The position numbers and the translations under genes are program-made. The notes below the pieces were generated by a model. The model did no database searches, had not been told where the DNA came from, and worked only from the letters and a program-made list of their open reading frames with translations. From assembly GCA_964510105.1 (NCBI GenBank), contig CAZEAI010000008.1:6923-70922 (forward strand): DNA of 64,000 bases, read 5' to 3'. The stretch is from an uncultured bacterium. Lineage in GTDB: Bacteria > Latescibacterota > MWCZ01. Within the stretch, counting starts at the first letter, position 1, and each line of letters opens with the position of its first letter. This document shows positions 12,461 through 58,606 of this stretch, piece by piece.

Positions 12461-12677
12461 GTTCGCCTCTCCATGCCGGGGGTCCTGCCGACGGTGAGTT
12501 CCGCCGCACGATAAGCTACCGCGCGAAGTTGGAGTGGGGGTAGGCGGTACGCGCCTGCCCGTGTCGTCGCGAACGCCGTTGGGGTGAACGCGGCGGCTTG
12601 TCATCTTTCAGCTTCAACTTGATGCCGTAGGTCGGGACTGACACGCGGCTCCGTCGCGTCTCTCATGTCGCGGGGAA

Positions 12678-16221: not shown

Positions 16222-16264
16222 GCTTGCGAGCCCACTAACCCGTTCATGCCGGAAGGATCATACC

Positions 16265-41527: not shown

Positions 41528-42097
41528 GAGGCCGATCCGCCCCGGTCGGATTGGCGAATCGCGTGGCCGCGACGGGCGCTCTGTCCCTCGCGGCCGCCTG
41601 CGTGCGGGGTACCGCTGTGCGGGCTACCATGGGGGTGCCACGCCACCGCTGCCCTCGTCCGCACCCTCAACGCCGTGTCGACGTGCCTCCGGTGAGCGCT
41701 CAGGCTTCGCCCTTCGCGCAGGGTTTGATGTTCGCGCTATCCGAAGTAATTTCCACGCCATAAGCGGCAGTTAGCCATATCCGTTCCGTACCGAGCTAGG
41801 GCGAGGAAGGAATCGGTAATGGGCTCCCAACGGCTGTTCGACGGCGTACCTGTCGTACAGCGCTGCCTCGGCAGCCATCGCGAGACCCCCGCTGGATCTC
41901 CGAGTGCGTTCGGGCAAACGGCGTCTGCTCGCCACCTCCCAAGTTCCGCCCTGATCCATCCACGTCGTCCGACACCGCAGCCTTCGAATTGCAGCGTACT
42001 ACACCCGCGCCCGCGCCATCCCCACCATCGCAGACCATGCCATCGGCCTGCGCCGGAAGGGGCGGACGTTCTTGAGGCTCTCAAAGGAGAATGAGCT

Positions 42098-42601
42098 ATG
42101 CGAACAAGGCTGGGGTACTGGATCTCCGCCGGGATCGTCGTCCTGCTCGCGGGATGCACCGCGAACCAGGATTCCACGATCAAGTCGAATGTCGAGCGGT
42201 ACCTGACTGAGAGCGCTCGAGCTGTTAACGCGCGAGACTGGGAGGCTTACGGAGAACTCTTCACCGAAGACCTGCTGATGTTCGCTCCGGGATTTCCCGG
42301 GACAAGGGGGCGGGACGCTCGTCTGGAGATGGTTCAGGGCATCATGGCAGCGTTCCCTGACGGTCGCGTGGATGGGCAGCGGGCGTTCGGCAAGGGCGAA
42401 TGGGCCTGCTTCCAGTTCGAATTCTCCGGCACAAACACTGGGCCGCTCGCAGCGGCTGACGGCAGCGAGATACCCGCCACCAACAAATCTGTCAAGTTCT
42501 CATACTGCATCGTTGCGCGGTACGAGGCAGGGCAGATCGCCGAACTCCATGAGTACTTCGATCAGATGGACTTGCTGACGCAGCTTGGCCTTGTGCCGTA
42601 G
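42098..42601 (+). CDS. SnoaL-like (ester-cyclase / NTF2-fold) lipoprotein
   Basis: Lipobox LLAGC, followed by the typical SnoaL block ...DWEAYGELFTEDLLMFAPGFPG.... Confidence 0.55.
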   Translation: MRTRLGYWISAGIVVLLAGCTANQDSTIKSNVERYLTESARAVNARDWEAYGELFTEDLLMFAPGFPGTRGRDARLEMVQGIMAAFPDGRVDGQRAFGKGEWACFQFEFSGTNTGPLAAADGSEIPATNKSVKFSYCIVARYEAGQIAELHEYFDQMDLLTQLGLVP

Positions 42602-42760
42602 AGGGGGCTGAGCGACCGCATGGTGCGGACGGCGACCCCTGGCCTCGGCGAAAACAGTGGCGTCGGAGGGTTGACGCGTGCCGCTATGGCGAATCTCGCA
42701 CCGGATCAGCTCAACACAGGCTGCGTAGAGGTTAGGGACACTCTCAGAGGAGGGCGTACG

Positions 42761-43243
42761 ATGCGAGCGAGACAGACTTGCTGGATTGCCGTCGGGGTCG
42801 GCCTGATGTCCATGGGTTGCAGCGCGACGGGGATGGCGGACCGCGATGCTTTCGAGGCGGCAGCAAAGGAGTTGGCTCAGGACTACTCCGTGGCCGTGGA
42901 TAGTGGAGATGTGAATCTCTATGTCACCCATTTGGACGACAACGCGATATACATGGCGCCAGGCGCTCCGGAACACAGTGGGCGGGCGGCTGTCGGAAGA
43001 GCGTTGGGAGAGTGGTTCGCGGCAGTGAATTTCGAGGAATTCGCCGTCAACCTTGAAGAGTTCGAGGTGTTCGGTGATTTCGGCTACATCCGTGGCACGT
43101 ACTCCTGTCTCACGATCCCATGGGCAAGTGGGGACACAACTCGGTTTGAGGGCAAAGTCCTGAGCATCCTGAGACGGCAACCCGACGGTTCCTGGAGGAT
43201 CTACCGCGACTGCTTCAACTCGAACGGGCTTCCGGCTATCTGA
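42761..43243 (+). CDS. NTF2-like (DUF4440/SnoaL-type) lipoprotein
   Basis: Signal peptide with MSMGCS. The C-terminal ...RQPDGSWRIYRDCFNSN motif is shared with the 48597-51033 paralogues. Confidence 0.5.
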   Translation: MRARQTCWIAVGVGLMSMGCSATGMADRDAFEAAAKELAQDYSVAVDSGDVNLYVTHLDDNAIYMAPGAPEHSGRAAVGRALGEWFAAVNFEEFAVNLEEFEVFGDFGYIRGTYSCLTIPWASGDTTRFEGKVLSILRRQPDGSWRIYRDCFNSNGLPAI

Positions 43244-43452
43244 CGTTGGCGCCATACCGGCGCCGACGACGGCGAGCTGTCATGCGCACCGGGAGACGGA
43301 GACGCACCGGTCTTTACTACCAGCTATTCCTTAGTATATTACCCCCTGATGTCGATCGCTGAGCGGGATAGTTGTACACGGCCCGCCCGTTCCTAGTGCC
43401 CTCCGTAGGCGGGTGGTCCCGCGCACTGCCGGCGCCGCCCGAGGTGGTCGCA

Positions 43453-46400
43453 GTGGATACTCAACGGCGAGCAGACGACGCAACTCTGGTCGGGCGTTGC
43501 CTCGACGGTGACCGCGAGGCGTTTGCCGGGCTCGTGCAGGCCTACGAGCAGACCGCCCTCGCGACGGCGATGGCGTACGTCGGCAACTCGGACGACGCGG
43601 GAGACGTCACCCAGGACGCCTTCGTCACGGCCTTCACGTCGATCGGCGATCTACGAAACCCGGCGCAGTTCGGGAGCTGGTTCCGACGAATCGTGCAGCG
43701 GCACGCGCTTGAGCGTGTACGCGATGCCGGACGAAGCACCCCTCTCACCGACGAGCACGGCGCCACACCCCCGCCCGCGTCGCCGGATATGCCGCAGACA
43801 TCGTTCTCCGCCGACGTGTCGTCCGCCGTGCAACAGCTTCCGATGGCATACCGCGACATCGTCCTGATGTATTACCTCAACGACTTGTCCTACCGCGGCA
43901 TCGCGGAGATCATGGACCTGCCGGAGTCGACGATACGGAGCCGTCTGCGAACGGCACGGCGAAGGCTGAAAGGCGTCCTGCCCAGACAAGGCCGCAATCG
44001 CGGCGCCGACGACCACGGGCAGATCCGCTCGGCGATTCAGAAGTCGGTAGGCAAGCGCCACTATCGCGACGCTCTCGAACGCCTCCTGTCGGCCGGAATG
44101 GAGCACATACGCGATACGCTCTCGGATGAGGAACAGGAGCTGTTCGGACGGAACGTCGAGACGATCCTCTCGCACGTAACCGGCATCGAGGACGAAAGCC
44201 CGTGCAGAGCGGATTGGGGGGAGGCGCCCGACGTCGAGGGATTCGTCGGGCGCGCGGAGGAACTCGCGACGTTGCGCACGTGGATCGCGGACGAGCAGTC
44301 GCGCCTGATTGCCGTCATCGGTATGGGTGGAATCGGTAAGACAGCACTCGCGGCAAGAGCAGCCAGGATCGTCGCAGGCCAGTTCGAGTGCGTCTTCTGG
44401 CGATCGCTGGTGAACGGACCGCCGCTTTCGAATGTGCTCACTGAGTTGATCGGGCACCTTCTTGGCGAGTTCAGCGTGCCACGCTCCGATCGGATCGACG
44501 AGCAGATCCGACGCGTCATGGAGTACCTGCGGTCCCACCGCTGCCTCATCGTGTTGGATAACGTCGAGGGAATACTGGAGGCCGGCGCCGCCGGTCGCTT
44601 CCGCGAGGGATACGAAGGTTACGGGCAACTGATACGACAGTTCAGCGAGTGCCCTCACCAGAGCACGGCGCTGCTCACCAGCCGTGAGCGGCCGCGCGAT
44701 TTCGCTCTTGTGGAGCGTGTTGACGGAACCGAACTGCACGCCTTCGAGCTGAAAGGCTTGGATGGCGACGCCGCACGGGAGCTTCCGGGCCTGGAGAGCA
44801 TTGCAGCATCGGACGACGACTGGCAGACGCTGGTGGAGCATTTTTCCGGCAATCCGCTCGCTTTGAGGCTGGTGGCGGAGAAGGTGTTGGACCTGTTCGG
44901 GGGAGATCTGTCACACTTCCTCGCGGCCGGACTTCCGCTGTTCGACGACGTGCGCGACATACTCGATCGGCAGTTCGAACGCCTGACGCCGCTTGAGCGT
45001 GACGTGATGTGCTGGCTGGCGATCGTACGGGAGCCGGTAACTCCGGATGAGATCCGCGTACGACTGGTTCCGGCCGTGTCGGCGAGTGAGCTTCTCCAGA
45101 TCATGCACTCCCTCAGTCTGCGAACGCTCGTGGAGCACCGTTCGGGTACGTTCCTTCTGCAGAACGTCATCACCGAGTACGTTACCGACCGAATCGTCGA
45201 ACAGGCGGCCGGCGAAATCGCGGCGGGCCTGGTGACTCTCCTGGATACCCACCCGCTGACGATGGCAACGGCGAGACCCAACGTGAGAGACGCACAGCGG
45301 CGTCTGATACTGTCGCCCGTCGGCCTTCGCGTGGTGAACGAATTCGGCCCGAACGCCGTGGAAGAAGCGCTGAAGGCAACCGTCGATTCGCTTCGTGCCG
45401 GCGACGCGCTCCCGAACGGGTATGCCGCGGGCAACTACTTCGACCTCGTGGCTCATCTCTTCGGCGAGGTGGTCGGCTGGGATTTCTCGCACCTCTCGGT
45501 CCGTCAGGCGGACCTGACCAGTGCACACGTGCACGACACCAGCTTCGCGCACTCCGTGTTCGGCGAATGCGCGCTTCAGCACGCACATGGCAACGTGGAT
45601 TGGGCTGAATTCAGTCCCAGCGGCCGGGAGATAGCGATCTCAGCGTTCGGACGACTGGAAACGCGATCGTTCCCGGGCCTGGAGCCGCTCAGCGCCGATT
45701 GCACGGAGGGTGTACGGTCGGCGACGTACACGACAGACGGTCGCCTCCTCGCCATCCGTCTTGAGCACGCGGAGAGTTGGCCGGAAGCAGCCGATCGCTA
45801 CTCGCCTCGACGGATCGATGGTGGGACCGGTAGCAGATGGCATAACTCTGTGATGGATGTTGCATCTGGAGCGGCCCTGTTGGAATACGATGTGCAGTGG
45901 ATGAATATCGGCTGCCTATGCCCTTCCGGCAGGCTACTCGCCCACGACGACATCGACTTCACCATCAAGGTGCTCAACCTGGAGAACAAGGAGTGCGTCG
46001 CGACGCTGCCGAGCAGCGTAGGCCGCCTCTCTCAGCACGGACTGGCATTCCACCCGGACGGTGAGATGCTGGCAACCTGTGGCTACGACGGATCGGTCAG
46101 GGTGTGGGATGTTCGGTCAGCCGAATGCAAATGGACGTCCGAGCAACAAGGATGTAGCAGAATCGCATTCACCCCGGACGGCGACAAGCTTGCTATCTCC
46201 GATACCCACAGCCATCGGACTCGGTTCATGGACGCCGATTGCGGTACGTGTCGAGGCACCATGGAGGCGGCTCTGCTGTCGTTCCATCCCGACGGCAGAA
46301 CGGTGGCCGGTCACGATTCGGCCAACCGCATCGTGATCTGCGCCGTCGATACCTCCGATCTCGCGGCGACATTCCGAAGCGAAACGGGGATGGTGACGGC

Positions 46401-48279
46401 CGCCTCGTTCAGCCCGGATGGACGGTACTTGTTGGTGGCGGAGGAGCCGGGCCTGCTCCGCGTCTGGGATCTGGAGACGGGGCAAAGCCTGAATTCGTCA
46501 CAGGGAAACCGGCACGCGAACGAGCCGAGGGCCGATATCGACCCAACCGGAAGACTTGTGGCCGTAGGTGAGGAAGCGGGCCAGGTGCATGTCTGGGACG
46601 TATCGGCGTCGCGCGTCGTCACGACACTGCGTGAGCGAGAGGCCCTGCTATCTGCGCACGAGTTCACGCCCTCGGCAAGCTCTCCGTCTGAACGCGACTG
46701 GCTCAACATAGATGAAGAGTGGAGAGTCTACGATGAAGACTCGGAACTATGCATCAACACAGCGGATGGGAGTCTGCGACGACAGACGCACCGAATTGCC
46801 TCGCCTGTACGCGACGTGGTTTTCAGTCCGGACGGATCGCTTGTGTCGGGCGCGGATCCGGCGGACCGGGGATTCAGGGCATGGCACGTGAGCACGGGAG
46901 AGTGCGTTGGCTGGTACAACAGATCGCATGCCGTCCGCTATGTCTGTTTCGCGCCGAATAGCTCGCTCGTCGCCTGTCACACGACGGATGACGAGGCCGA
47001 ATATCCGACAACGATCTGGAATTGTCGTACCGGGCAGCTCGTTCGTGGGCTCCCGTGTCACTCGTGGCATATGGCTTTCACCCCGGACGGCAGAACCTTC
47101 GCGGGAGCGACCTACCGCGACGGGGAATTCGTCATGAACCTGTGGGACGTTTCCTCGGGTGAGCGACGGCTGTCCCTCGAAGCGCGGGAGTGGATAACGT
47201 ATTTCTGGCTCTACAGCGTGACCGGATTCAGCGCGGACGGGAGACTGCTGGGTACGTGTCTGGGCGGCCCGAACTACAGGGGAGCCATCGTGTGGGATAC
47301 GGCTGTAGCTGAGCCGCTGCTGAAGGTGCCCGGCAGCAAATACCTCAGCTTCCTCGAGAACGACCGAGTGTTGGTTCGCGGCGGGATGGAAGGCCAGACG
47401 GTGTCGGTCGTGGACGTCCGAACGGGTGAACAGATGGACTCGTGGAACACCAGTATCACCGGCCCGACCAGAGCATTCAGCTCCGACGGCAGGATGATTG
47501 TCACGGCATCGGAGCATCAGCCGGGTGTATCGGTCTGGAATGTCGACGATGGATCCCACGTGTGCACGATTCCCCGGATTCGTCCGTACGATGGAACGAA
47601 CATCGCGCACGCGGACGGGCTGACGCCTGCCGAAACAGCGACACTGAAACGCCTGGGCGCCATCGAGCAAGAGGTGGGGCTCTCCCCTGCCGAGCCCCAG
47701 TCGCCGCCGCGTTCGTCGCCACGGGACCCTCTCGAACGACGATTCACCGCATGGGCAGGGGGACCGAGGGCGCTCGTGTCGGTCGTCTGCGTCGAAGCGG
47801 CCGATCGAACCATCCTGTCCGACCGGCTTGAGGGTAACCAGCGCGTCGAACGCATGCGCGCCCGGCACGCACAACGGCTGCGGGATCTCACCGGTCGGCA
47901 CCACGGGCTGACAATCTGCGACGACGGCGCGAGCGCTTCCATCGCTTTCCACACACCCACGGAGGCGCTGGAGTTCACGCGAGAGTGCCGTCGAGAGACA
48001 GAAGCGGACGGGATCAGGCTGCTTACCGGCATCCATGTGGAATCGATCAGGATCGGGAGCGAGGACCCCTTCGACCACCTTGCCACACACCTTACCGGGA
48101 TAGTCGAGAAGGCGAATTCGTCCGGGGTCTGGGCGAGCGACGAATACAAGGACCTCCTTGCGAGATTCGGTCCGAACGGCCTGCCGGAGCCGGTGTGGAT
48201 CATGCACCCCAACTGCCAGCTCAAAGGGCTTCCGGGGAAGCACAAGCTATGGTCGCTGACCGACGACGCGCCGGCCTGA
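43453..48279 (+). CDS. ECF sigma-70 factor fused to an NB-ARC/STAND NTPase, WD40 repeats and a C-terminal class-III-cyclase-homology-like domain
   Basis: Sigma-70 region 2 (AFAGLVQAYEQTALATAMAYVGNSDDAGDVTQDAFVTAF) and region 4 (LPMAYRDIVLMYYLNDLSYRGIAEIMDLPESTIRSRLRTARRRLKG). Then FVGRAEELATLRTW...IAVIGMGGIGKTALA...CLIVLDNVE...GNPLALRLV, the NB-ARC P-loop/GxP motifs. Then at least 10 WD40 units (FHPDGEMLATCGYDGSVRVWDV...). Then a roughly 170-aa C-terminal domain matching the cyclase pattern (...IRLLTGIHVESIRIG...VWIMHPNCQLKGLPGKHKLWSL). This is one uninterrupted frame. The start is set at the GTG at 43453 after AGGTGG; the exact start is uncertain (43372-43453). Confidence 0.65.
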   Translation: MDTQRRADDATLVGRCLDGDREAFAGLVQAYEQTALATAMAYVGNSDDAGDVTQDAFVTAFTSIGDLRNPAQFGSWFRRIVQRHALERVRDAGRSTPLTDEHGATPPPASPDMPQTSFSADVSSAVQQLPMAYRDIVLMYYLNDLSYRGIAEIMDLPESTIRSRLRTARRRLKGVLPRQGRNRGADDHGQIRSAIQKSVGKRHYRDALERLLSAGMEHIRDTLSDEEQELFGRNVETILSHVTGIEDESPCRADWGEAPDVEGFVGRAEELATLRTWIADEQSRLIAVIGMGGIGKTALAARAARIVAGQFECVFWRSLVNGPPLSNVLTELIGHLLGEFSVPRSDRIDEQIRRVMEYLRSHRCLIVLDNVEGILEAGAAGRFREGYEGYGQLIRQFSECPHQSTALLTSRERPRDFALVERVDGTELHAFELKGLDGDAARELPGLESIAASDDDWQTLVEHFSGNPLALRLVAEKVLDLFGGDLSHFLAAGLPLFDDVRDILDRQFERLTPLERDVMCWLAIVREPVTPDEIRVRLVPAVSASELLQIMHSLSLRTLVEHRSGTFLLQNVITEYVTDRIVEQAAGEIAAGLVTLLDTHPLTMATARPNVRDAQRRLILSPVGLRVVNEFGPNAVEEALKATVDSLRAGDALPNGYAAGNYFDLVAHLFGEVVGWDFSHLSVRQADLTSAHVHDTSFAHSVFGECALQHAHGNVDWAEFSPSGREIAISAFGRLETRSFPGLEPLSADCTEGVRSATYTTDGRLLAIRLEHAESWPEAADRYSPRRIDGGTGSRWHNSVMDVASGAALLEYDVQWMNIGCLCPSGRLLAHDDIDFTIKVLNLENKECVATLPSSVGRLSQHGLAFHPDGEMLATCGYDGSVRVWDVRSAECKWTSEQQGCSRIAFTPDGDKLAISDTHSHRTRFMDADCGTCRGTMEAALLSFHPDGRTVAGHDSANRIVICAVDTSDLAATFRSETGMVTAASFSPDGRYLLVAEEPGLLRVWDLETGQSLNSSQGNRHANEPRADIDPTGRLVAVGEEAGQVHVWDVSASRVVTTLREREALLSAHEFTPSASSPSERDWLNIDEEWRVYDEDSELCINTADGSLRRQTHRIASPVRDVVFSPDGSLVSGADPADRGFRAWHVSTGECVGWYNRSHAVRYVCFAPNSSLVACHTTDDEAEYPTTIWNCRTGQLVRGLPCHSWHMAFTPDGRTFAGATYRDGEFVMNLWDVSSGERRLSLEAREWITYFWLYSVTGFSADGRLLGTCLGGPNYRGAIVWDTAVAEPLLKVPGSKYLSFLENDRVLVRGGMEGQTVSVVDVRTGEQMDSWNTSITGPTRAFSSDGRMIVTASEHQPGVSVWNVDDGSHVCTIPRIRPYDGTNIAHADGLTPAETATLKRLGAIEQEVGLSPAEPQSPPRSSPRDPLERRFTAWAGGPRALVSVVCVEAADRTILSDRLEGNQRVERMRARHAQRLRDLTGRHHGLTICDDGASASIAFHTPTEALEFTRECRRETEADGIRLLTGIHVESIRIGSEDPFDHLATHLTGIVEKANSSGVWASDEYKDLLARFGPNGLPEPVWIMHPNCQLKGLPGKHKLWSLTDDAPA

Positions 48280-48390: not shown

Positions 48391-48495
48391 TGCGGTAAGC
48401 GACTTACGCACCTTTCGCGCTATACCCCCCTGGGGGTCGGAATGCCTCGACATGAGCACATCCAGCCACCGTACTCCATCTAGTAGGCAGCAGCG
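48391..48495. repeat. about 100-bp conserved intergenic element A with a CCCCCC-T-GGGGG palindrome
   Basis: About 75% identical to 51271-51360 (GCGACTTACGCA..TTTCGC.CTATACCCCCC(T)GGGGGGTCG.AATGCC...CATCC...CCATC). Confidence 0.5.
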
Positions 48496-48596: not shown

Positions 48597-49085
48597 ATGC
48601 GCACGAAATCAGTGTGCTGGATCGCCAGCGGCATCATCGCCACCATCGTTGTTCTCGCGGGCTGCGGCGACGGCTCGGCGGACGCGTCGGGCGATGTGGA
48701 CTTCGGCGCAACTCTTGCGGAACATGCGGCGAAGTATGCCGCGGCGTGCAACGCGGGCGATGCGGACGCCTACTGCGCCTTACTCGACGAGAGTTTCACT
48801 CAGTTGCCACCAGGCGCTCCACCATTCATTGGGAAGGCAGCCGTCAGGGATGCGATAGGAGGGTTTTTCGAGGCATACGATCTCGAGGATTTCACGATCG
48901 AAACACAAACGTACGAGGTGTCCAGGGAATTTGCATGGAATTGGGGCACGTATTCCTATCGCACGGCTCCAATGGGTACGACCGATTTCGCTCCGTACGA
49001 GGGCAAGTACCTGAGCGTACTGAAGAAGCAGCCTGACGGTACCTGGTTGTTCTACATTGGCTGCTTCAACTCGAACACGCATTAG
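48597..49085 (+). CDS. NTF2-like (DUF4440/SnoaL-type) lipoprotein, paralogue 1
   Basis: GGAGGAGG RBS and lipobox VLAGCGDG. Conserved blocks ...AAACNAGDADAY...FAWNWGTYS...KKQPDGTWLFYIGCFNSN. Confidence 0.6.
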   Translation: MRTKSVCWIASGIIATIVVLAGCGDGSADASGDVDFGATLAEHAAKYAAACNAGDADAYCALLDESFTQLPPGAPPFIGKAAVRDAIGGFFEAYDLEDFTIETQTYEVSREFAWNWGTYSYRTAPMGTTDFAPYEGKYLSVLKKQPDGTWLFYIGCFNSNTH

Positions 49086-49248
49086 GGTAGATCGCGCCGT
49101 CGGCGATAGCACCAACGAAACGGGCGGGTCTCCTGAGATGGCAGCCCCGTACCGCCTGCACGGCCGACAGCGATCTGCGGAAACCGGAGCGACTGGGGAG
49201 TTCGTTCCGGCGCATCGTTCAACAGCTCCTCGAAGGGGAGGAAGAGCA

Positions 49249-49746
49249 ATGCGATCACGACTGACGCGTTGGATTATCAGCCGTATTGCGGGCAGCAGCG
49301 ACGACGCGACCACAGTCCCGACGACGGCGGAGACCGAGGGCTTCGAGACGGGCCCCGAGGAATTTGTGCGGGCCTTTGTGGCAGCGTGTAAGGCTGGGGA
49401 TCTGGATACCTACATGGCCCTTGTCGACAAGGACTTCGTCAGGATGCCCCCGGATGCTCCACCGATCGTCGGAGAAGCGGCGATCAGGGAGTGGGCCAAA
49501 GGTTTCTTCGAGACATTGGAACTTGAGGAATTCACGGTCGATAATCGCGAATCCCACGTGTTCGGCGATTTTGCCTGGTTCTGGGGCACGCACTACATTC
49601 GCTCGGCTGTCAAGGGACAGGAACCCTCGGTATGCGAGCATATCGACGGCAAGCACCTCACTGTTCTGAAGAAACAGGCTGATGGCTCCTGGGCGGTGAT
49701 CGCCGACTGCTTCAATGGAAACGCACCTCCTACTGTGCCAAACTGA
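49249..49746 (+). CDS. NTF2-like protein, paralogue 2 (lipobox Cys replaced: IAGSSDD)
   Basis: Same fold blocks as paralogue 1. The start is at MRSRLTRWIISRIAGSSDD, preceded by the GGGGAGGAAGAG motif shared by all paralogues. Confidence 0.55.
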   Translation: MRSRLTRWIISRIAGSSDDATTVPTTAETEGFETGPEEFVRAFVAACKAGDLDTYMALVDKDFVRMPPDAPPIVGEAAIREWAKGFFETLELEEFTVDNRESHVFGDFAWFWGTHYIRSAVKGQEPSVCEHIDGKHLTVLKKQADGSWAVIADCFNGNAPPTVPN

Positions 49747-49885
49747 CGCGGTGGGGGGGCATCCGAACGCGCCGGGCGGGCTGCCGTGCGGGTAGCTCCG
49801 GCCGCTCTCAACGTCGCACGGCGGTCAAGCGATCCACAGAGGCCTGCGCACCGTTCAGCAGCGTCTCGAAGAGGAGGAAGAGTAA

Positions 49886-50391
49886 TGCGAACGCAACTAG
49901 CCCGTTGGGTCACCAGCGGCATCATCGTCGTTCTCGCGGGCTGCGGCGACGACAGGGACAGCGGCCCAACGGCGGCCGAGATCGAAGCCTTCGAGGCGGC
50001 TGAGGTGACGCTTCCGCAAGCGTATGCCGCGGCGTGTAACGCGGGGGATGCGGACGCGTACGTCGCTCTTATCGATGACGACTACGTTCAACTGCCCCCT
50101 GATGCTCCACCGGTCATTGGGAAACCGGCCATGCTCGAGCGAATCAGACTGATGTTCGGGGCGTATGATTTCGAAGAATTCACCGTCGATAACCGCAAGG
50201 CGGAGATGTTTGGCGACTGGGGTTGGGTCTGGGGTACGCACTCCTATCTCCTGGCACCCCAGGGCACGACCGAATTCACAAAGTACGACGGCAAGCACCT
50301 GAGCATTCTGAAGCGGCAAGCCGACGGTTCCTGGCTGTTCTACGGCGACGCCTTCAACTACAACGCTCCCGCGATGAAACTGGCGCCCTGA
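49886..50391 (+). CDS. NTF2-like lipoprotein, paralogue 3
   Basis: MRTQLARWVTSGIIVVLAGCGDD lipobox. Conserved ...AAACNAGDADAY...KRQADGSWLFYGDAFNYN. Confidence 0.6.
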
Positions 50392-50523
50392 GCGAGCGTA
50401 CCGAAAGGCCGGACGCGACTCAGTGCACGGGTGGTCCCGCCCGTTCTCGACGCTGAGGCGGAGGGCGGGTCGCCCATACGACCGTCGCATCGGTTGGCTG
50501 CGCACTCGAAGGGGAGGAAGAGA

Positions 50524-51033
50524 ATGCGATCCCGACTGACGCGTTGGATTACCAGCCGTGTTGCGGGCAGCAGCGACGACACCACCGCCGTCCCGACAGC
50601 GGCGGATGTCGAGACTTTCGAGGCATTCCTTGCGAGGCTTGCGGTGGGTGCGGATGGGTATGCCGCGGCGTGTAACGCCGGGGATATCGACGCCTTCTGC
50701 GCCCTACTCGATGAGGACTTCACTCAGATGCCGCCAGACCAGCCACCATGCGTTGGGAAAGCGGCCGTTAGGGAGCGAATGGCAGGACTGTTCGCGGCAG
50801 TTGATCTCGAGGACTTCACGATCAACCACCAGGATTGGGCCATGTTTGGCGATTTTGCCTTCCTGTGGGGCACGTACTCCTGTCGCACGGCGCTGCAGGG
50901 GCAGACACCCCCGGTATGGAGTTCGTTCGACGGCAAGTACCTGAGTGTCGTGAAGAAGCAGACTGATGGTTCCTGGCTGGCGTACCTCGACTGCTTCAAC
51001 TCCAACGTTCCTGGAGCGGAATTGGCGCTGTGA
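50524..51033 (+). CDS. NTF2-like protein, paralogue 4 (lipobox Cys replaced: VAGSSDD)
   Basis: MRSRLTRWITSRVAGSSDD... and conserved NTF2-like blocks, with the same upstream motif. Confidence 0.55.
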   Translation: MRSRLTRWITSRVAGSSDDTTAVPTAADVETFEAFLARLAVGADGYAAACNAGDIDAFCALLDEDFTQMPPDQPPCVGKAAVRERMAGLFAAVDLEDFTINHQDWAMFGDFAFLWGTYSCRTALQGQTPPVWSSFDGKYLSVVKKQTDGSWLAYLDCFNSNVPGAELAL

Positions 51034-51270
51034 GCGAGCGTACCGACAGACCGGGGGGCTCCCGCGCATGGAGCCCCCCCGGTCTCCGTACCGCCCTTAC
51101 GCACGCGAGCCTGCCTGGCGCCGCATTCACCCGGCGTGCTCGCGGCGCCGTGACACCTCCTCCAACACCGCCTGACGCACTGATCGCGCCGCGTCGACGC
51201 GAGCTGCGGATTCCTCACGAACTGTCACGCCTCAATGAGAACCTCAGGGTTCCGTTCGCGCAGTCCAGTG

Positions 51271-51360
51271 TGCGACTTACGCAGATTTCGCCTATACCCC
51301 CCGGGGGGTCGCAATGCCCCGGTTCGGCCACATCCGGCTGTCCCCATCCATCTAACAGGC
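51271..51360. repeat. about 100-bp conserved intergenic element B (perfect CCCCCCGGGGGG palindrome)
   Basis: Paralogous to 48391-48495. Located between the last NTF2-like gene and the cyclase-homology ORF. Confidence 0.5.
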
Positions 51361-51437
51361 AAGCAATCACGGTCAACTGCCCGGACCGTGGGAGTCACAT
51401 CGCATCAGGGCGGGAAGATCGAGTTAGGGAGGCATCG

Positions 51438-52052
51438 ATGGCCTGCGATCGCGAATCGGGCGATCACGGATCGGGCGAAAACGACCTCAGCGTCGAGCCC
51501 GTGTCGAGCGGAATCGCGCTAGTCTCACTAGTAGCGACACTCCCCGCCGACCCGTCGGTCCTCGTCGCCCGGCTCGAAGGGAACGAGCGAATCGAGCGGG
51601 CACGCCGGGCGGTGGCGTCCAGGGCGAGCGACGTGATCGGGAATCACAGTGGATGGCAGGTCGCCGGTAACGGCGAATCGATCACGGCTGCCTTCGGAGC
51701 GCCATCGGAAGCGCTTGACTTCGCGCTTGAGCTGCAGTTCGACACCGGTTCGCGGCTCATCAGGCTGCGTGTGGCGGCGCACGTTGACGTCGTGGCAGAT
51801 CGGGGATCCGGCGTCGCCTGCGGCGACGTGGGACCGTACGACGACATGCTCGCCTTCACGCGGCAGTTGCTGCGGAGGAACGGCGGCACGGAGGTGTGGA
51901 CGAGCAACGATTTCAAGACTCAGATCGACCACCACGGCACAACGCGTCAACGAGAACTCGACTGGATGATGCGACCAAACTGCGTGCTCGACGGGTACGA
52001 GGGACGGCACATCCTCTGGTCGGTGAATAGCCGCGAGGCGGCGATTCCTTAG
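51438..52052 (+). CDS. stand-alone class-III nucleotidyl-cyclase-homology-like domain protein (degenerate)
   Basis: GGGAGG RBS. 205 aa. ...IALVSLVATLPADPSVLVARLEGNERIERARR...IRLRVAAHVDVVADRGSGVACGDV...DWMMRPNCVLDGYEGRHILWSV parallels the cyclase blocks (VTVLFADIVGFT / RIGIHTGxVV / xELKGK). It is paralogous to the C-terminal domain of the ECF-STAND protein. Confidence 0.45.
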   Translation: MACDRESGDHGSGENDLSVEPVSSGIALVSLVATLPADPSVLVARLEGNERIERARRAVASRASDVIGNHSGWQVAGNGESITAAFGAPSEALDFALELQFDTGSRLIRLRVAAHVDVVADRGSGVACGDVGPYDDMLAFTRQLLRRNGGTEVWTSNDFKTQIDHHGTTRQRELDWMMRPNCVLDGYEGRHILWSVNSREAAIP

Positions 52053-52167
52053 GCAGTTCGCTCTGCGAACTGCAAAACGAATGCGAGCGCCACGAGCGTT
52101 CGCCGCGCGGGCAGCCCCGCTCCACCCGTTCCTCCTCGGGGCTGCCTGCCATGGAAAGGAGTTCATC
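52053..52167 (+). promoter_or_regulatory. conserved intergenic element, copy 1: terminator-like hairpin, conserved spacer, then leader hairpin, upstream of a T9SS cargo gene
   Basis: GCAGTTCGC-tct-GCGAACTGC hairpin immediately after the stop codon. A conserved ACGAAxGCGAGCGCCACGxGCGTTCGCC spacer follows. A second hairpin GGCAGCCCCG-n17-CGGGGCTGCC sits 20 nt before the RBS. Confidence 0.5.
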
Positions 52168-53517
52168 ATGAACATGCGCCGCACCATCCTTCTGTGTCTG
52201 GGGATGCTGCTCTGCGCGGGAGTCCGAATCGCACACTCAGCCCCCGCCATCGCACCCGACTGGATACAAAGCGGCCATTCGAGCTATGTGTTATGTGTGG
52301 CGATAGACTCGGTTGGGAATACCATCGTTACGGGGAGCGCCGACCGCACGATTAAGGTGTGGGACCTGTCCGGCGGCAGGTTGCTGCGGACGCTCCCCGT
52401 TCCCGACAGTGGCGACGAGGGTCACACGGCCGGCGTACAAAGCGTGGCGATCAGCCCTGACGGGAGCACGATCGTCTCGGGAGACTGGGACCACACTACG
52501 AAGGTGTGGAACCTGTCCGACGGCAGGCTGCTACGCACGCTCATCGGCGGCAGAGGCGATGCGTGGAGCGTAGCTTTCGCCCCGGATGGTAACACGGTTG
52601 TCTCGGGCGGCTTCGATGCCACGATCAAGGTGTGGCGGCTGTCCGACGGCACCGTGCTGCGCATACTCAGAGGCCACACGAGCTACGTGACCAGCGTGGC
52701 AGTCAACGGGAATACTGTCGTCTCGGGGAGTGCCGATCGTACGGTCAGAGTGTGGGATCTGTCCGACGGCACGCTGTTGCGGACCCTCACTGCTTCAAGC
52801 TGCGCGGGCGCCGGTCATACCGCTTGCGTGGCCAGTGTGGCGATCAGCCCCGATGGGGACAGGATCGTCTCGGGGAGCGCCGACGGCACGATCAAGGTAT
52901 GGAATCCGTCCGACGGCACGCTGCTGCGAACACTCCCAGTCCCGGGCGGCGGCGACGCGGCACACACGGGTGGTGTCCGAAGCGTGGCGATCAGCCCCGA
53001 CGGGAACAGGATCGCGTCGGGAGGTCTCGACGCCACGATCAAGCTGTGGAGTCTAACCGAAGGCTCGCTGGAGAAGACCCTCGCCGCCCATGGGAACACG
53101 GTGTGGAGCGTGGCGATTAGCTCCGATGGCGGATCCATCGTGTCAGGTGGAGGAGACGCACGGGTGATCCGATGGGGTGTGTATCCGCCGCTCAAGACGC
53201 TGACACCGCCTAGTGCGGTAGAAGGGAATCCACGGCAAGCTCGTGCGACCTTGTCACAGAACGTCCCGAACCCGTTTAACCCATCGACGTCCATCCCGTA
53301 CTCGCTTGCGTCGGACGGCGTTGTGCGGCTCGAGTTGTACGACGCGATCGGCCGGCCGGTGCGGACGTTGCTGGCCGACTACCGCCACGCGGGAGAGCAC
53401 TCCGTCGTGTGGGACGGTCGCGACGACGCGGGTCGCGCGGTAGCGAGTGGCGTCTACGTTGTACGGATGGTGGCAAGCGGCTTCGTCACAGCGCGGAAGG
53501 TGACACTGCTGCGATAG
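52168..53517 (+). CDS. secreted WD40-repeat protein with a T9SS (Por) C-terminal sorting domain
   Basis: Signal peptide MNMRRTILLCLGMLLCAGVRIAHS. About 8 WD40 units (TIKVWDLSDGTLLRTL...). C-terminal NVPNPFNPSTSIPYSLASDGVVRLELYDAIGRPVRTL... T9SS CTD. Confidence 0.7.
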   Translation: MNMRRTILLCLGMLLCAGVRIAHSAPAIAPDWIQSGHSSYVLCVAIDSVGNTIVTGSADRTIKVWDLSGGRLLRTLPVPDSGDEGHTAGVQSVAISPDGSTIVSGDWDHTTKVWNLSDGRLLRTLIGGRGDAWSVAFAPDGNTVVSGGFDATIKVWRLSDGTVLRILRGHTSYVTSVAVNGNTVVSGSADRTVRVWDLSDGTLLRTLTASSCAGAGHTACVASVAISPDGDRIVSGSADGTIKVWNPSDGTLLRTLPVPGGGDAAHTGGVRSVAISPDGNRIASGGLDATIKLWSLTEGSLEKTLAAHGNTVWSVAISSDGGSIVSGGGDARVIRWGVYPPLKTLTPPSAVEGNPRQARATLSQNVPNPFNPSTSIPYSLASDGVVRLELYDAIGRPVRTLLADYRHAGEHSVVWDGRDDAGRAVASGVYVVRMVASGFVTARKVTLLR

Positions 53518-53645
53518 CGAGAGGATTGCCGCAGTTCGCCTAGCGAGCTGCAAGACGAAAGCGAGCGCCACGCGCGTTCGCCGCGCGGGCAGCCCCGTTC
53601 CACCCGTTCCTCTTCGGGGCTGCCTGCCATACAGAGGAAAGAGTC
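53518..53645 (+). promoter_or_regulatory. conserved intergenic element, copy 2
   Basis: About 90% identical to copy 1. Hairpin 1 carries a U-G wobble change (GCGAGCTGC). Hairpin 2 is identical. Confidence 0.5.
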
Positions 53646-56045
53646 ATGATACGCACACTGACAACGCTCACAGCCACGCTGTTCGCGCTCGGCCCGCTCG
53701 CTGGGGCAAATACGGACGTCAGCGGCGAAATCACGACTACCACGTGGACCGCCGCAATGGGCCCCTATCAAGTCACCGACACGATCACCGTCCCGACGGG
53801 CAACACGCTCACCATCGAGCCAAGCGTGGATGTGCTCTTCGACGCCGACGTGCCGTTCGTCGTCGAGGGCGCGTTGGATGCAGTCGGCACCGAAGTCGAC
53901 AGCATCCGGTTCATCGCGGGCACCGCCGACGAGTGGGGCGGCATCCGCTTCAACGGCGGCGACTCAAGCACGATCCACTACGCGCGCGTCAGCGATGCAT
54001 TCACCCACGCGCCCTCTCCGTTTGTTGGTGGCGAAGGAGGCGGCATCCACCTGTTGAGCTCATCGCTCGGTCTGGCACACTCTGTCGTAAGCGGCAACAC
54101 AGTCGAGGGCTACGGAGGTGGTCTGTTCGCCGACAGCGCCACCGTCACACTCGACTCATGCGCGATCACGGGCAACGCGGCGAAGAAGGCCATGGCTGGC
54201 GGCGACGGCGGTGGCGTTTATGCGGTCGAGTCGACCGTTTCGTTAACTGGATGCGCGGTGTCTCAGGACAGCGCCGCTGGCGCTGGAGGCGGCGTACACG
54301 GCCGGAACTCGACGCTGTCTCTCGAGGCGTGCGACATCCAAGACAACGCCAGCCTGTCCACTGGCGGAGGGCTCCACCTCGTTGGGGGCACCGTCGGTAT
54401 GACGGTATGCAGTGTCTCGAACAACGACGCCGGAGGCACAGGAGGTGGGCTATACACCACTGGGGTCGACATGGTCCTGGCTGACTGCGACGTATCGGGT
54501 AACGCATCAGGCGCGTCTGGGGGCGGGCTGTGCGTTGCGGGAAGCGGAAGCGGTCTCACCCTGACCGACTGCACTGTGTCAGCGAACGTGGCTGGTCTCA
54601 ACGGCGGCGGAATGGTTCTCAACGGGGTTACTGCGACGCTCGCAGGCTGTGCCGTCGATGGCAACTCGGCAGGTACGGCGCCGGTCGCAGGCGGCGGCTC
54701 CGGCAATGGCGGGGGATTTTCCGCAAGGGGTGGGGCGATCACGCTCTACAACTCCACGGTGAACCGCAACACGGCAGGCAAATGGGGTGGGGGGTTCTAC
54801 ACCGGCGGCACGGCGGTCACTATGGGTGCCTGCGAGCTCCGGGGAAATGCGTCCTGGGGAGGGGCCCCGACCGATTTCTTCGGCGGCTCGACCGTTACGA
54901 TGACGAACTGCCTCGTGGCCGGGAATACTGCCTTTCTGCCAAGCGCAGGCCTGGATTTCCATGATGCCTCCGCGACGCTGGTGAATTGCACCGTCGTCGA
55001 CAATCGGTCGCTGGGCGAACCCGGTTGTACCCCGCCGGACAGCGTATGGGGAATCATAGGCGCCGCCGCCAGCAGCCCGGACCAGACGATCACACTCATC
55101 AACTCCATCATCTGGGGACACAGTGGGGACCACGGTCTGGACTACTGGCTATGCGGAGCAGAAACGGGCGTCTGCCCGGGGATCTGCATCCCAGGACCTT
55201 TCCCGCCTGGCGCGCCGACGACTGCGACCTACTGCGCCGCCGGGGCCGTCAATGTGGAAGGGTGGTGGTCGAGCGTGGGGAACGTCAACGCCGACCCGAT
55301 GTTTGTCGACACGATCGCGTACGCGCTGCTGCCGAGCTCACCGTGCATCGACACGGGGTCACATTACATCCTCGATGAGGACGGCTCCCCGTCGGACATG
55401 GGGTACACCGGCGGAGGGCGGTACGGGCGGTGCCAGGTGTCACTCGTGCCGGACACGCTGTACCGCGACTCCACTGACTTCGTTCGCGTCAGGAACGTCG
55501 GCGACGCGCCTCTCGGCGTGTTCGAGCCGGACCTTCCTGATTCGTTTGTGACGGACATGGTCTTCCCGCAAGCCGTTGAGCCGGACAGCACGCTCTACAT
55601 TCCGGTGACGTATACCCAGCGCGGCTACCATGAGAAGACCGCCGTCATCCATACTTCTGATCCGTGGACACCGGATACGGTGGTGCTGCTGAAGGGCAAG
55701 TGGCCCGTGGCGATAGCAGCAATCGCTCGCCCACCGGCGTTCGCGCTGTCGCCGAACGTCCCGAATCCGTTCAACCCGGCGACGCGCATCCCATATGCGC
55801 TCGCGTCGGACGGGGATGTGCGGCTCGTGCTGTACAACACCCTCGGCCAGCGCGTGCGTACGGTCGTGGACGAATATCGAAGCGCGGGCGAACACTCCGT
55901 CGTGTGGAATGGGCGCGACGACGCGGATCGGCCCGCGGCGAGCGGGGTGTACATCGTGCGGCTGACTCACACTGGGGCGAATCGGAACGATTCGCGGACG
56001 AACTCGAACGCAGTGAGAGTTCGCAGGGTGACGCTGCTGCGATAG
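53646..56045 (+). CDS. secreted right-handed parallel beta-helix (Pmp-like) repeat protein with a T9SS C-terminal sorting domain
   Basis: Signal peptide MIRTLTTLTATLFALGPLAGA. Dozens of GGG[LV]x / NxAxxGGG repeats of about 22-25 aa. C-terminal NVPNPFNPATRIPYALASDGDVRLVLYNTLGQRVRTV... CTD. Confidence 0.65.
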   Translation: MIRTLTTLTATLFALGPLAGANTDVSGEITTTTWTAAMGPYQVTDTITVPTGNTLTIEPSVDVLFDADVPFVVEGALDAVGTEVDSIRFIAGTADEWGGIRFNGGDSSTIHYARVSDAFTHAPSPFVGGEGGGIHLLSSSLGLAHSVVSGNTVEGYGGGLFADSATVTLDSCAITGNAAKKAMAGGDGGGVYAVESTVSLTGCAVSQDSAAGAGGGVHGRNSTLSLEACDIQDNASLSTGGGLHLVGGTVGMTVCSVSNNDAGGTGGGLYTTGVDMVLADCDVSGNASGASGGGLCVAGSGSGLTLTDCTVSANVAGLNGGGMVLNGVTATLAGCAVDGNSAGTAPVAGGGSGNGGGFSARGGAITLYNSTVNRNTAGKWGGGFYTGGTAVTMGACELRGNASWGGAPTDFFGGSTVTMTNCLVAGNTAFLPSAGLDFHDASATLVNCTVVDNRSLGEPGCTPPDSVWGIIGAAASSPDQTITLINSIIWGHSGDHGLDYWLCGAETGVCPGICIPGPFPPGAPTTATYCAAGAVNVEGWWSSVGNVNADPMFVDTIAYALLPSSPCIDTGSHYILDEDGSPSDMGYTGGGRYGRCQVSLVPDTLYRDSTDFVRVRNVGDAPLGVFEPDLPDSFVTDMVFPQAVEPDSTLYIPVTYTQRGYHEKTAVIHTSDPWTPDTVVLLKGKWPVAIAAIARPPAFALSPNVPNPFNPATRIPYALASDGDVRLVLYNTLGQRVRTVVDEYRSAGEHSVVWNGRDDADRPAASGVYIVRLTHTGANRNDSRTNSNAVRVRRVTLLR

Positions 56046-56125
56046 TCGAGGCGAACCGGAGTTGCGTAGCAACTCCCAGACGAACGTGAGCATCGCGAGC
56101 GTTCGCGGGGCTGCCGGCAACACTT
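56046..56125 (+). repeat. conserved intergenic element, copy 3 (partial)
   Basis: GGAGTTGC-gta-GCAACTCC hairpin with two compensatory base-pair swaps relative to copy 1, followed by the CGCGAGCGTTCGC conserved spacer. No cargo gene follows. Confidence 0.4.
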
Positions 56126-56354
56126 GCCGGATACGCGCGGTCGGGCTGACGACTCTCAGCGCCGTTGACGAGGCGAAAGAGTGCGATCGAACGAGCGGGG
56201 CCCATGCGGGGAGCGGCGCGCGCCACGGGTATACTTGGCACCGACGGGCTGAGGCACAAAGAGGCTTGAACGCTCAAGAATTTGGGCGTATGTTCGGTAC
56301 GGGAACCAACCATGGGTGAGAGGAACACGACATCGCGTGTTGAGGAGGTTTGCC

Positions 56355-57344: not shown

Positions 57345-57505
57345 CGAGTGCGGCACCGTCGGGAGGATTCGCGTAGGCACGTTTGTCATGAACGATTCTG
57401 ACGCAGCCGGGGCGCGCCAGCGATGTTGGCGCGCTGGACTCCATCCGACCAGACGAGCGAATGTGCAACCGTCACGTCGGAGCGTCCTGTCACGGGGAAG
57501 TCTTC

Positions 57506-58606
57506 ATGGATGCGTCGATGATGTCGAAGTTCCTGCCAGGGATGGATCTGTGCGAAGCGTTCTACCATGAGGTCGTGTCCCCAATCATCGAGCAACGGTT
57601 CCCGGGCTTGGTGTACTCCGCTGCAAAGCTGCACCACGGATCGGATGTTCTGGGATTCGATACACCGCAGTCGATGGACCACGACTGGGGGCCGTCCAGG
57701 ATCGACCTCTTCCTGCGAGAGGTGGACTGCCACCGCCTGTCTGAAGAGGTGGGATCGGTTCTCTCGTCTGAGCTCCCGCATGTGTTCCGCGGGTTGCCGA
57801 CGGATTTCAGATCGGACGATGAGCACGCTGGGATCGTTCTTGTGGCTGAAGGACCTGTATTGCACAGGATCAACTGCACTACCACAGACCGATTCTTTCA
57901 TCGCTTCCTCGGATTCAGCCCGCTGGATCCCATCGGGGAGACGGACTGGCTGACCGTCTCTCCGCACTACCTTCGGATGATCGCATCGGGTAAGGTATTT
58001 CATGACGGATTGGGCGAGCTTCGGGCAGCACAGGATGCGCTGCGCTGGTACCCCAGTGATGTCTGGCTCTACCTCCTGTCGTGCCAATGGGGAAGAATCG
58101 ATCAGGAAGAGGCGTTCATGGCGCGGTGCGGCGACGTCGGTGATGAGCTTGGTTCCCGCCTCGTTGCATCTCGCATGGTGGAAGAGCTCATGAAGCTCTG
58201 CTTCCTGATGGAACGCCAGTATTGGACTTTCAGCAAGTGGTTCGGCACAGCTTTCTCGCGGCTGGAATGCGCCGCGACGTTGACCCCCGTGTTTGACGCG
58301 GTGCTCAGCAGCACGGGATGGAAGGAGCGAGAAAAGCACCTCTCGGAGGCGTATGTCGATGTGGGTATTATGCACAACACTCTTGGAATAACCACCTTCA
58401 TCGAACCGAACGTATCGCAGTTCTACGATCGGCCTTATCAAGTGCCACACGCTGAGCGGTACTGCTTCGCGCTGCGCGACTGCATCCAATCGGACACGGT
58501 GTTGTCCTGGCCGAAATACGTAGGCGGCGTCGGGCAGTTCGTGCACTCCACCGATGTTCTGTGCAGCACGGTGCACTGCAAGAGGATCGGAGCGATCTAT
58601 GAATGA
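57506..58606 (+). CDS. hypothetical protein
   Basis: 367 aa in a clean frame, convergent with cysNC. No family confidently recognised. The start is chosen at MDASMMSKF. Confidence 0.35.
   Translation: MDASMMSKFLPGMDLCEAFYHEVVSPIIEQRFPGLVYSAAKLHHGSDVLGFDTPQSMDHDWGPSRIDLFLREVDCHRLSEEVGSVLSSELPHVFRGLPTDFRSDDEHAGIVLVAEGPVLHRINCTTTDRFFHRFLGFSPLDPIGETDWLTVSPHYLRMIASGKVFHDGLGELRAAQDALRWYPSDVWLYLLSCQWGRIDQEEAFMARCGDVGDELGSRLVASRMVEELMKLCFLMERQYWTFSKWFGTAFSRLECAATLTPVFDAVLSSTGWKEREKHLSEAYVDVGIMHNTLGITTFIEPNVSQFYDRPYQVPHAERYCFALRDCIQSDTVLSWPKYVGGVGQFVHSTDVLCSTVHCKRIGAIYE

Follow-up and report, generated by a model that had tools for sequence, protein, structure and literature searches.

A conserved, locally amplified hairpin repeat between co-directional genes of an uncultured high-GC bacterium

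What is the short hairpin-forming repeat that lies between the genes of a co-directional cluster on contig CAZEAI010000008.1, and does it serve the genes around it? The window considered here, that is, the whole stretch of 64 kb (63.6% G+C) from a metagenomic bacterium (JGI 3300009374; ENA SUTE22-1 assemblies), contains an element that a preliminary description had reported in three copies (52053-52167, 53518-53645, and 56046-56125) upstream of genes for putative cargo of the type IX secretion system (T9SS). The copies are located as claimed. The element is a real and conserved hairpin repeat that has been amplified locally and is linked to a gene tail; the claim of covariation holds, and nothing in it points to a new mechanism. 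The reading favoured here, with a probability of about 0.45 and hence slightly short of even odds, is that of a locus-restricted repeat between cistrons similar to the repetitive extragenic palindromic (REP) sequences and bacterial interspersed mosaic elements (BIMEs), whose RNA stem-loops would provide 3'-end protection or attenuation and which would have spread by local duplication and recombination.

The repeat consists of units with a core of about 50 nt, in which a first hairpin (H1) is joined to a second one (H2) by a linker of 2-3 nt plus an A. H1 is 19-23 nt long and has a stem of 8-10 bp, a loop of 3 nt, and a variable sequence; H2 is a 25-nt stem-loop with invariant outer pairs (CGAA/TTCG), three covarying inner pairs, and an 11-nt loop GAGCnnnnCGA. 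The full repeat, comprising the tail of a C-terminal domain (CTD) gene, its stop codon, about 12 nt, H1, the linker, and H2, has a period of about 81-85 nt. The common core ACGAANGNGAGCNNCNCGNGCGTTCGC occurs three times in the window versus 0.01 expected from dinucleotide shuffles, and the patterns of H1 and of a further hairpin, H3, are likewise non-random. A covariance model (CM) detects a fourth unit, c4 (45.9 bits, E = 4e-10), in the 3' end of geneB, where it contributes to the translated C-terminal extension THTGANRNDSRTNSNAVRV. All units are on the sense strand of the cluster formed by a 204-aa gene, geneA, and geneB, and sit 0-14 nt past stop codons that are either real or relics (Table 1). 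Each copy had been described as starting right after a stop codon, which is the case for copy 1 only, since 13 nt intervene in copy 2 and 12 nt in copy 3. The 8-9-bp stems of H1 were confirmed, with one U-G pair in copy 2; the two base-pair swaps ascribed to copy 3 are really one C-G to G-C swap plus the loss of one whole pair, unit 1b of the relative contig L007 being the intermediate, and the supposed conserved spacer is in fact H2, a second hairpin with compensatory changes of its own. With regard to H3 (GCGGGCAGCCCCG, 17 nt, CGGGGCTGCCTGC), a hairpin with a 17-nt loop does exist in copies 1 and 2, but 6 nt separate it from the Shine-Dalgarno sequence and 18 nt from the ATG, and it does not end 20 nt before the ribosome-binding site. 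It is a separate hairpin of the 5' untranslated region (UTR), found at these two places only, where a gene with a ribosome-binding site comes next; copy 3 retains only its 3' arm (GGGGCTGCC).

Table 1. Repeat units and associated features of the window (bp, base pairs; ORF, open reading frame; CDS, coding sequence).
Feature	Position	Strand	Description
Unit c1, H1	52053..52073	+	GCAGTTCGC TCT GCGAACTGC, 9 bp; first base directly after stop TAG of the 204/340-aa ORF
Unit c1, H2 module	52077..52103	+	A CGAATGC, 11-nt loop GAGCGCCACGA, GCGTTCG C; 7-bp stem, one U-G
H3 of copy 1	52107..52149	+	13-bp stem, one G-U, 17-nt pyrimidine-rich loop; geneA 5' UTR
geneA Shine-Dalgarno	52156-52161	+	AAGGAG; ATG 52168
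geneA	52168..53517	+	Signal peptide, WD40 propeller, FlgD_ig/T9SS-type CTD
Unit c2	53531..53581	+	H1 53531-53551 (c1 stem with one U-G), H2 module 53555-53581; 13 nt past geneA stop
H3 of copy 2	53585..53627	+	geneB 5' UTR; ATG 53646
geneB	53646..56045	+	Beta-helix, FlgD_ig/T9SS-type CTD; hypervariable among relatives
Unit c4	55977..56024	+	Within geneB CDS; H1 GCGAATCG GAA CGATTCGC, H2 CGAACTC..GAGTTCG
CTD tail	56025..56045	+	AGGGTGACGCTGCTGCGATAG (RVTLLR, stop); identical 21 nt end the non-coding L007 units 2a and 3a
Unit c3	56058..56106	+	H1 GGAGTTGC GTA GCAACTCC 56058-56076 (8 bp), H2 module 56080-56106; 12 nt past geneB stop
Segment 3' of c3	56107..56130	+	GGGGCTGCC (3' arm of H3), then separate 7-bp hairpin CCGGCAA CAC TTGCCGG (56114-56130); the transcription unit probably ends here, before the promoter region of the malate dehydrogenase gene

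That the hairpins are kept by compensatory change, as had been proposed, is borne out when more units are compared. A CM (R1) built from 11 distinct units (alignment A2) recovers four units in the window, seven in L007, and three in its variant L008, all on the + strand, with no further match better than E = 0.2 elsewhere in the 64-kb window. The search for additional copies with such a model had been suggested beforehand, and it yields units in which pairing is maintained rather than drifting. In the CM alignment 91.7% of cells pair, compared with 79.3% for shuffles; both sides are changed in nine pairs, a number reached by 0/500 shuffles, and the covariation score is 0.315 versus 0.106 (0/500 shuffles reach it), while controls with slid partners pair at only 24-39%. 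The figure of 91.7% understates the pairing because both MAFFT and the CM alignment leave the 8-bp variants of H1, which have a one-pair deletion, out of register. In fact, in a hand-registered table of the 11 units, 166/171 stem cells pair (97%), with 160 Watson-Crick pairs, 6 G-U, 1 A-C, and 4 other combinations. H1 occurs as four stem types, namely GCAGTTCGC/GCGAACTGC, GCGGTTGC/GCAACTGC (intermediate), GGAGTTGC/GCAACTCC, and GCGAATCG/CGATTCGC, and a stepwise series leads from type I (GCAGTTCGC) through L7_1b (GCGGTTGC) to type II (GGAGTTGC). In H2, the inner pairs vary as GC/GC, CG/CG, GU/GC, and UC/GA (inner triplets CGC/GCG, CCG/CGG, and CUC/GAG), and the H2 of L7_1a is a one-sided intermediate whose G-A mismatch has become a U-A pair again in c4. 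The alternative minimum-free-energy fold of H2 in c1 and c2 (GCGAGCGC/GCGUUCGC) is not kept in other units, which use the 7-bp CGAAnnn/nnnTTCG stem instead. On the other hand, the stems of H3 never vary, and consequently this hairpin has no covariation support. The excess of G-U over A-C (6:1) points to the sense strand. Folding of the + strand is more stable than that of shuffles (z = -4.55, -3.10, and -1.80 for copies 1-3), whereas that of the - strand is not better (z = -1.86, -1.07, and -0.64).

The origin of the units can be followed in close relatives. The closest homologue of geneB (P0002) is encoded on L007, a syntenic contig about 92% identical in flanking DNA, of which L008 and L009 are variants. 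L007 bears extra units at all three intergenic sites (1a, 1b, and 1c before geneA; 2a and 2b before geneB; 3a and 3b after geneB), the comparison between window and L007 being 1 versus 3, 1 versus 2, and a coding unit versus a non-coding one. In units 2a and 3a the 3' end is formed by GTTCGCAGGGCGACGCTGCTGCGATAG, which repeats the final codons of a CTD gene (RVTLLR, stop) as non-coding sequence; before unit 1c lie 63 nt of a degenerate CTD 3' end, likewise a relic. What corresponds to unit 3a in the window is c4, which is in frame in geneB and encodes ...THTGANRNDSRTNSNAVRVRRVTLLR followed by the stop; therefore, the match of geneB to TIGR04183 stops at profile position 62/72. The CTD 3' ends have been co-duplicated as well (D9, 53252-53469 versus 55747-55964, 77% identity), and the repeat would first have been copied along with the 3' ends of paralogous CTD genes, because several units run into a relic of the last 21 nt of such a gene. 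Later exchanges are also apparent. Unit c1 combines the H1 of 1a with the H2-H3 of 1c, the result of a deletion between two type-I H1 copies, with loss of 1b and the gene relic; c2 and L7_2b have the same H2-H3 and different H1 types; and L8_u1 is a chimera of a type-I H1 and a 2a-type H2, directly before geneB in a haplotype without geneA, a gene present in L007 and absent from L008. The mosaic junctions fall exactly at the linker between H1 and H2 and just past GTTCGC, which are the two edges of H2, and modules are exchanged there. It has been shown in this way that recombination between units alters both their number and the combinations of H1 and H2 between close relatives. Contigs L002, L003, and L008 begin within or beside the CTD tail or repeat units, and the repeats evidently break short-read assemblies.

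In spite of this turnover, orthologous copies are under purifying constraint, as judged from alignment of the window with L007, and are more conserved than neighbouring four-fold degenerate sites, which are 86-94% identical in the 204-aa gene, geneA, and the malate dehydrogenase (Mdh) and CysNC genes. One mismatch-free run of 109 nt (52064-52172) includes the 3' arm of H1, H2, H3, and the ribosome-binding site, and another one covers 68 nt (56054-56121); c3 is 100% identical to unit 3b. Loops and linkers show 100% identity and the flanks (ACGAA/GTTCGC) never vary, which suggests sequence-specific recognition by a protein, on RNA or DNA.

The proposed tie to T9SS cargo is not borne out. No unit accompanies the third CTD gene of the window (40019-41527), which has only a unique stop-proximal hairpin, none was found among five tandem beta-helix/FlgD_ig genes on contig L025, where intergenic gaps are only 15-25 nt, or at five other loci with CTD homologues (L010-L014, 55-59% identity), and the contigs of Mdh relatives at 74-79% identity are devoid of both the gene cluster and the units. 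(On L025, whose tandem genes occupy 1-13207, a DarT and Macro-domain gene pair lies nearby at 15325-17059.) In addition, c1 follows a non-CTD gene and c4 is inside a coding sequence. The idea of a leader or attenuator dedicated to T9SS substrate genes finds no support, given these absences and the presence of units in non-CTD contexts. Inspection of downstream gene classes reveals no general tie to CTD genes, and the element is not tied to T9SS cargo as a class.

Within the window, the four units belong to a single 4-kb locus (52053-56106) and none occurs elsewhere. A related unit has been found on an unrelated metagenome contig, L006, between genes for an amino-acid permease and a metallophosphoesterase. 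Its H2 is identical to that of L7_1b at 29/30 nt and is followed by the same AGG; before it, and separated by a 2-nt linker, the position of H1 is taken by a perfect hairpin of 10 bp whose loop has 3 nt and whose sequence is entirely different. This contig hints at a wider family, which a single instance is insufficient to establish. The possibility that the element is merely a generic REP upstream of unrelated genes had been considered as a refutation; the L006 unit does lie among unrelated genes, but the window units, confined to one locus, do not show a generic genome-wide REP. L006 also has REP-like 10-bp hairpins at 2760-2870 (CCCCTCTCCC/GGGAGAGGGG and CCCTTCCCCC/GGGGGAAGGG) beside the H2-like module, and a second short H2-like hairpin, ACGAACGC..GCGTTCGC followed by GGCTGCC, at 324-368, 2.5 kb from the main unit. 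A scan for the core pattern returned two matches in genome contigs, both in coding DNA of unrelated metagenome-assembled genomes (L004 and L005), and one (L006) in a set of metagenome contigs that does not include the source sample. Five matches in viral contigs were taken as chance, given that the best-scoring one (L024) falls within an ORF and that in the remaining four, with scores of 15-17 bits, the inner pairs of H2 are broken. Searches with blastn against plasmid and phage DNA gave no match, Rfam gave none at gathering score in the whole window, and permissive Rfam scans of the window and L007 loci gave only chance-level matches (E >= 1).

How would such units act? The four SnoaL/DUF4440 genes, the 204-aa gene, geneA, geneB, and the Mdh gene follow each other in this order. 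A conserved block of about 90 nt, carrying a CCCCCCTGGGGG/CCCCCCGGGGGG palindrome, is found at 48400-48489 and 51272-51361. The block occurs only before SnoaL#1, the first SnoaL gene, and before the 204-aa gene, for both of which it probably serves as a promoter or regulatory region; this restricted position suggests a single operon made up of the 204-aa gene, geneA, and geneB. Inside the repeats no promoter-like site was detected, and the Mdh gene has a promoter-like region of its own. The units would accordingly be placed within a polycistronic mRNA of these three genes, where stem-loops near a stop codon could block 3'-to-5' exonucleases, or cause partial termination or ribosome stalling, or both. 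They may set the relative output of upstream and downstream genes, as REP/BIME elements do in E. coli, and c3 together with the next hairpin would close the operon. It has been reported that REPs located 15 nt or less from a stop codon stall ribosomes and lower translation (PMC12306157 and references therein), and that REP/BIME elements attenuate transcription and stabilise mRNA (PMC12306157 and its references 12, 13, 17). The terminator scan returned no site in the repeats, and no hairpin is followed by a U tract, the bases directly after them being AAAACGAA, CAGACGAA, or CGCGCGGG; therefore, classical intrinsic termination is unlikely. Considering position, sense-strand specificity, kept pairing, and the lack of U tracts and internal promoters, a model of intercistronic RNA stem-loops fits best.

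Several points weigh against this model, the scan for terminators just mentioned being one of them. Transcription, 3' ends, and expression effects of the units are all predicted from sequence. Since many units are paralogues, the independent compensatory events are few, about 4-6 by our estimate, and the sample amounts to two lineages at about 92% identity plus one outlier (L006). The CM alignment behind the count of nine pairs was fitted to the model and leans towards structure, and palindromic hairpins could also be maintained by a process at the DNA level. Finally, a plain exonuclease barrier does not account for the invariant loops, linkers, and ACGAA/GTTCGC flanks.

Among known systems, the element seems by analogy to work most like REP/BIME elements and the REP-stabiliser hairpins found between cistrons. 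REP/BIMEs of E. coli and other Proteobacteria also consist of short, imperfectly palindromic sequences in transcribed extragenic DNA, either between cistrons or at the 3' ends of genes, where they fold into stem-loops; they are likewise combined in a modular manner, with conserved linkers and a unit number that varies between strains, and many REPs are within 15 nt of the stop codon (PMC12306157). The palindromes of this class are 20-40 nt long, a size to which H1 (19-23 nt) and H2 (25 nt), both folding on the sense strand, correspond, c4 lying in a coding sequence. However, the class is dispersed in hundreds of copies in E. coli, while there are four units at one locus in these 64 kb; BIMEs alternate in orientation, while the units here are mosaic yet all on the + strand; no transposase domain, such as that of the cognate RAYT (Y1 transposase), was detected in the window ORFs scanned; and the units here are tied to a relic of a coding tail and have no sequence similarity to any described REP. 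Another example is that of the intercistronic stabilisers such as malE-malF, which are stable hairpins on the sense strand only, directly after the upstream stop and between co-transcribed genes. They differ from the present case, where two or three hairpins with conserved loops go beyond a plain exonuclease block and the function is predicted from sequence. In high-GC bacteria (mycobacterial and actinobacterial), non-canonical intrinsic terminators are known that consist of hairpins without a U tract or of tandem hairpins. These resemble the units in their GC-rich stems near the stop and the absence of a U run, and other window genes end likewise; nevertheless, c1 and c2 lie in a probable operon without a downstream promoter-like site, and therefore cannot be efficient terminators. 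The canonical combination of GC-rich hairpin and U tract of Rho-independent terminators is not found here. Unique strong GC-rich hairpins without a U tract occur in the window directly after other stops (41531-41555, 43244-43268, and 51053-51079), which suggests that this is the usual 3'-end signal of the organism, and H1 fits this local style. The BOX elements of Streptococcus pneumoniae (boxA-boxB(n)-boxC) are also modular intergenic repeats with a variable number of internal modules and a predicted stable RNA structure; unlike the present units, they are dispersed genome-wide, and both their sequence and their phylum are unrelated.

The best-surviving alternative, itself unlikely, is a selfish or DNA-level repeat of no service to the host, in which the hairpins matter as single-stranded DNA structures, or H2 is the recombination core for a RAYT/IS200-like transposase or a tyrosine recombinase. 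It would explain why unit number differs at all three intergenic sites between such close relatives, why geneA is missing from haplotype L008, and why junctions, including that of the L8_u1 chimera, coincide with the linker and the end of GTTCGC between invariant ACGAA...GTTCG flanks, and it is consistent with the nearly identical H2 of L006 beside a different 10-bp H1 in an unrelated context, with a second H2-like motif plus GGCTGCC. Nevertheless, ordinary homologous recombination between repeats accounts for the mosaics, and no transposase, RAYT, or recombinase/integrase domain was found in the ORFs scanned against Pfam, which were the larger non-overlapping ones and not all. The confinement of all window units to one locus, their single orientation, which is that of transcription, the prevalence of G-U over A-C, and the conservation of orthologous copies in place also speak against it, as does the lack of terminal inverted repeats and target-site duplications. 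A mobile miniature repeat had been envisaged from the beginning; this idea keeps its point in so far as unit number and module combinations differ between close relatives, but the features of a miniature inverted-repeat transposable element are missing, the unit ends (GCAGTTCGC ... GCGTTCGC) being direct instead of inverted and the flanks not duplicated.

An improbable explanation is that of a cassette of terminator, promoter, and leader, in which H1 ends the upstream transcript, H2 is a promoter of the extracytoplasmic function (ECF) sigma type read by the neighbouring sigma/NB-ARC/WD40 proteins, and H3 is a stabilising hairpin at the 5' terminus. GAAC, 15 nt, and GTT are present in every H2, ACGAAC and CGTTCG being invariant at fixed spacing in all units, H3 begins 4 nt after H2, where transcription would start, two ECF-type sigma fusion genes lie just upstream, and the complete conservation of loops and linkers would also be accommodated. 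However, a promoter needs no pairing, and yet the three inner pairs of H2 covary. ECF promoters usually have a spacing of 16-17 nt between a GGAAC-like -35 and a CGT-like -10 motif, above the 15 nt seen here; some units are arranged in tandem, one lies within a coding sequence, and another is at the operon end that faces Mdh with its own promoter-like region; and no similar motif is found upstream of the sigma genes, the SnoaL genes, the third CTD gene, or other neighbours.

Slightly less credible is a neutral relic, that is, leftover copies of the 3' flanks of tandemly duplicated CTD genes without present function. The CTD-tail relics within units 2a and 3a and before 1c, the co-duplicated CTD ends, and the restriction to one locus all fit this origin. 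Against it, pairing has been kept through sequence turnover, even in the strongly diverged c4, and the element regions contain the longest mismatch-free runs of the locus (109 and 68 nt), in excess of those of the adjacent coding DNA, the longest of geneA being 83 nt (mean spacing there 12.8 nt).

More doubtful still is the first proposal made for this locus, a structured leader or attenuator RNA dedicated to T9SS cargo, in which H2-H3 controls translation or termination according to secretion status. In its favour, H2-H3 and the ribosome-binding site are kept before two unrelated CTD genes in two genomes with 0-4 changes, and the pyrimidine-rich loop of H3 faces a purine-rich Shine-Dalgarno sequence. 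Nonetheless, units are missing at the third CTD gene, the five genes of L025, and L010-L014; geneB of L008 has a unit without H3; H3 stems are invariant and hence provide no covariation evidence; no Rfam family matches; and the minimum-free-energy fold leaves the Shine-Dalgarno free. The H3 loop was also considered as an anti-Shine-Dalgarno sequence and rejected, its complementarity and duplex energy being no better than those of shuffled loops.

The least probable proposal makes H2 (ACGAAC, 15 nt, GTTCGC) the core site of a hairpin- or sequence-directed recombination that moves, deletes, and re-joins T9SS-cargo genes and C-terminal tails as cassettes, which fits the junctions at the edges of H2, the presence of geneA in L007 and not in L008, and the final RVTLLR strand supplied by the geneB-translated unit. 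Integron attC sites are similar in that imperfect palindromes directly follow promoterless co-oriented genes, with ...AAC and GTT... at the ends of H2, and in the presence or absence of repeat-flanked genes; they were discarded as a model because H2 measures 27 nt versus 57-141 nt, the cores ACGAAC/GTTCGC are unlike RYYYAAC/GTTRRRY, coding-tail relics are involved, and neither an attI nor, in the ORFs scanned, an integrase domain was found.

Returning to the genes themselves, the gene upstream of geneA, whose function is unknown, has 204 aa as called in the relative and 340 aa as a mechanical ORF, with its stop TAG at 52050-52052. The T9SS sorting model type A (TIGR04183) scores 22.2 bits in geneA and 22.7 bits in geneB, for a cut-off of 23; FlgD_ig is above the Pfam cut-off in geneB and absent from the 25 Pfam families listed for geneA, whose CTD is 59.6% identical to that of geneB. 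The label "T9SS-type CTD" seems reasonable for both, based in geneA on the TIGR04183 match and the identity to the CTD of geneB. An ATG at 52081, within the H2 of copy 1 and in frame with geneA, gives a mechanical ORF at 52081-53517, and gene callers could mis-annotate geneA with an N-terminal extension through the repeat; this start is unlikely because of the Shine-Dalgarno and signal peptide at 52168 and the lack of an equivalent ATG in c2. GeneB (53646-56045) and its counterpart in L007 (4316-6568) share 60% amino-acid identity and 56% identity at four-fold sites, while surrounding genes have 92-97% amino-acid identity; the divergence is mosaic, with a diverged middle and conserved ends. 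A diversity-generating retroelement was dismissed, as there is no reverse transcriptase and the variation of geneB is not limited to the C-terminus.

Further upstream, two giant ORFs (35108-39985, 1625 aa, and 43372-48279, 1635 aa) precede CTD-protein and SnoaL-like genes. In the second one, as scanned, ECF-type sigma-70 regions 2 and 4 are joined to an NB-ARC ATPase and WD40 propellers, a sigma-STAND fusion of an unusual kind; the first, not itself scanned, is taken as its paralogue from size, position, and common WD40-coding repeats. The SnoaL/DUF4440-like genes form a tandem array of four copies (48597-51033, period about 640 bp), with two further copies 6 kb upstream (42098-43243), and their ribosome-binding regions are repeated too. 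Downstream of the units, a DUF4037 gene (57461-58606) is missing from the syntenic contigs L007 and L008, an indel without a flanking repeat unit.

With respect to the biology of this organism, whose nearest named homologues are from Latescibacteria and Eisenbacteria, no open question of T9SS regulation is resolved by these results. If H2 were a recombination core, it would represent an integron-like device by which an uncultured lineage shuffles its secreted surface proteins. If the favoured reading of intercistronic stem-loops is true, a poorly known, uncultured, high-GC, T9SS-bearing bacterium has lineage-specific REP-like elements, and such repeats can arise and amplify locally along with the 3' tails of paralogous secreted-protein genes, mediate gene loss and gain by recombination, and even be absorbed into coding sequence. 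This would be useful for the annotation of metagenome-assembled genomes, because assemblies break at repeats, and for understanding the turnover of hypervariable surface proteins.

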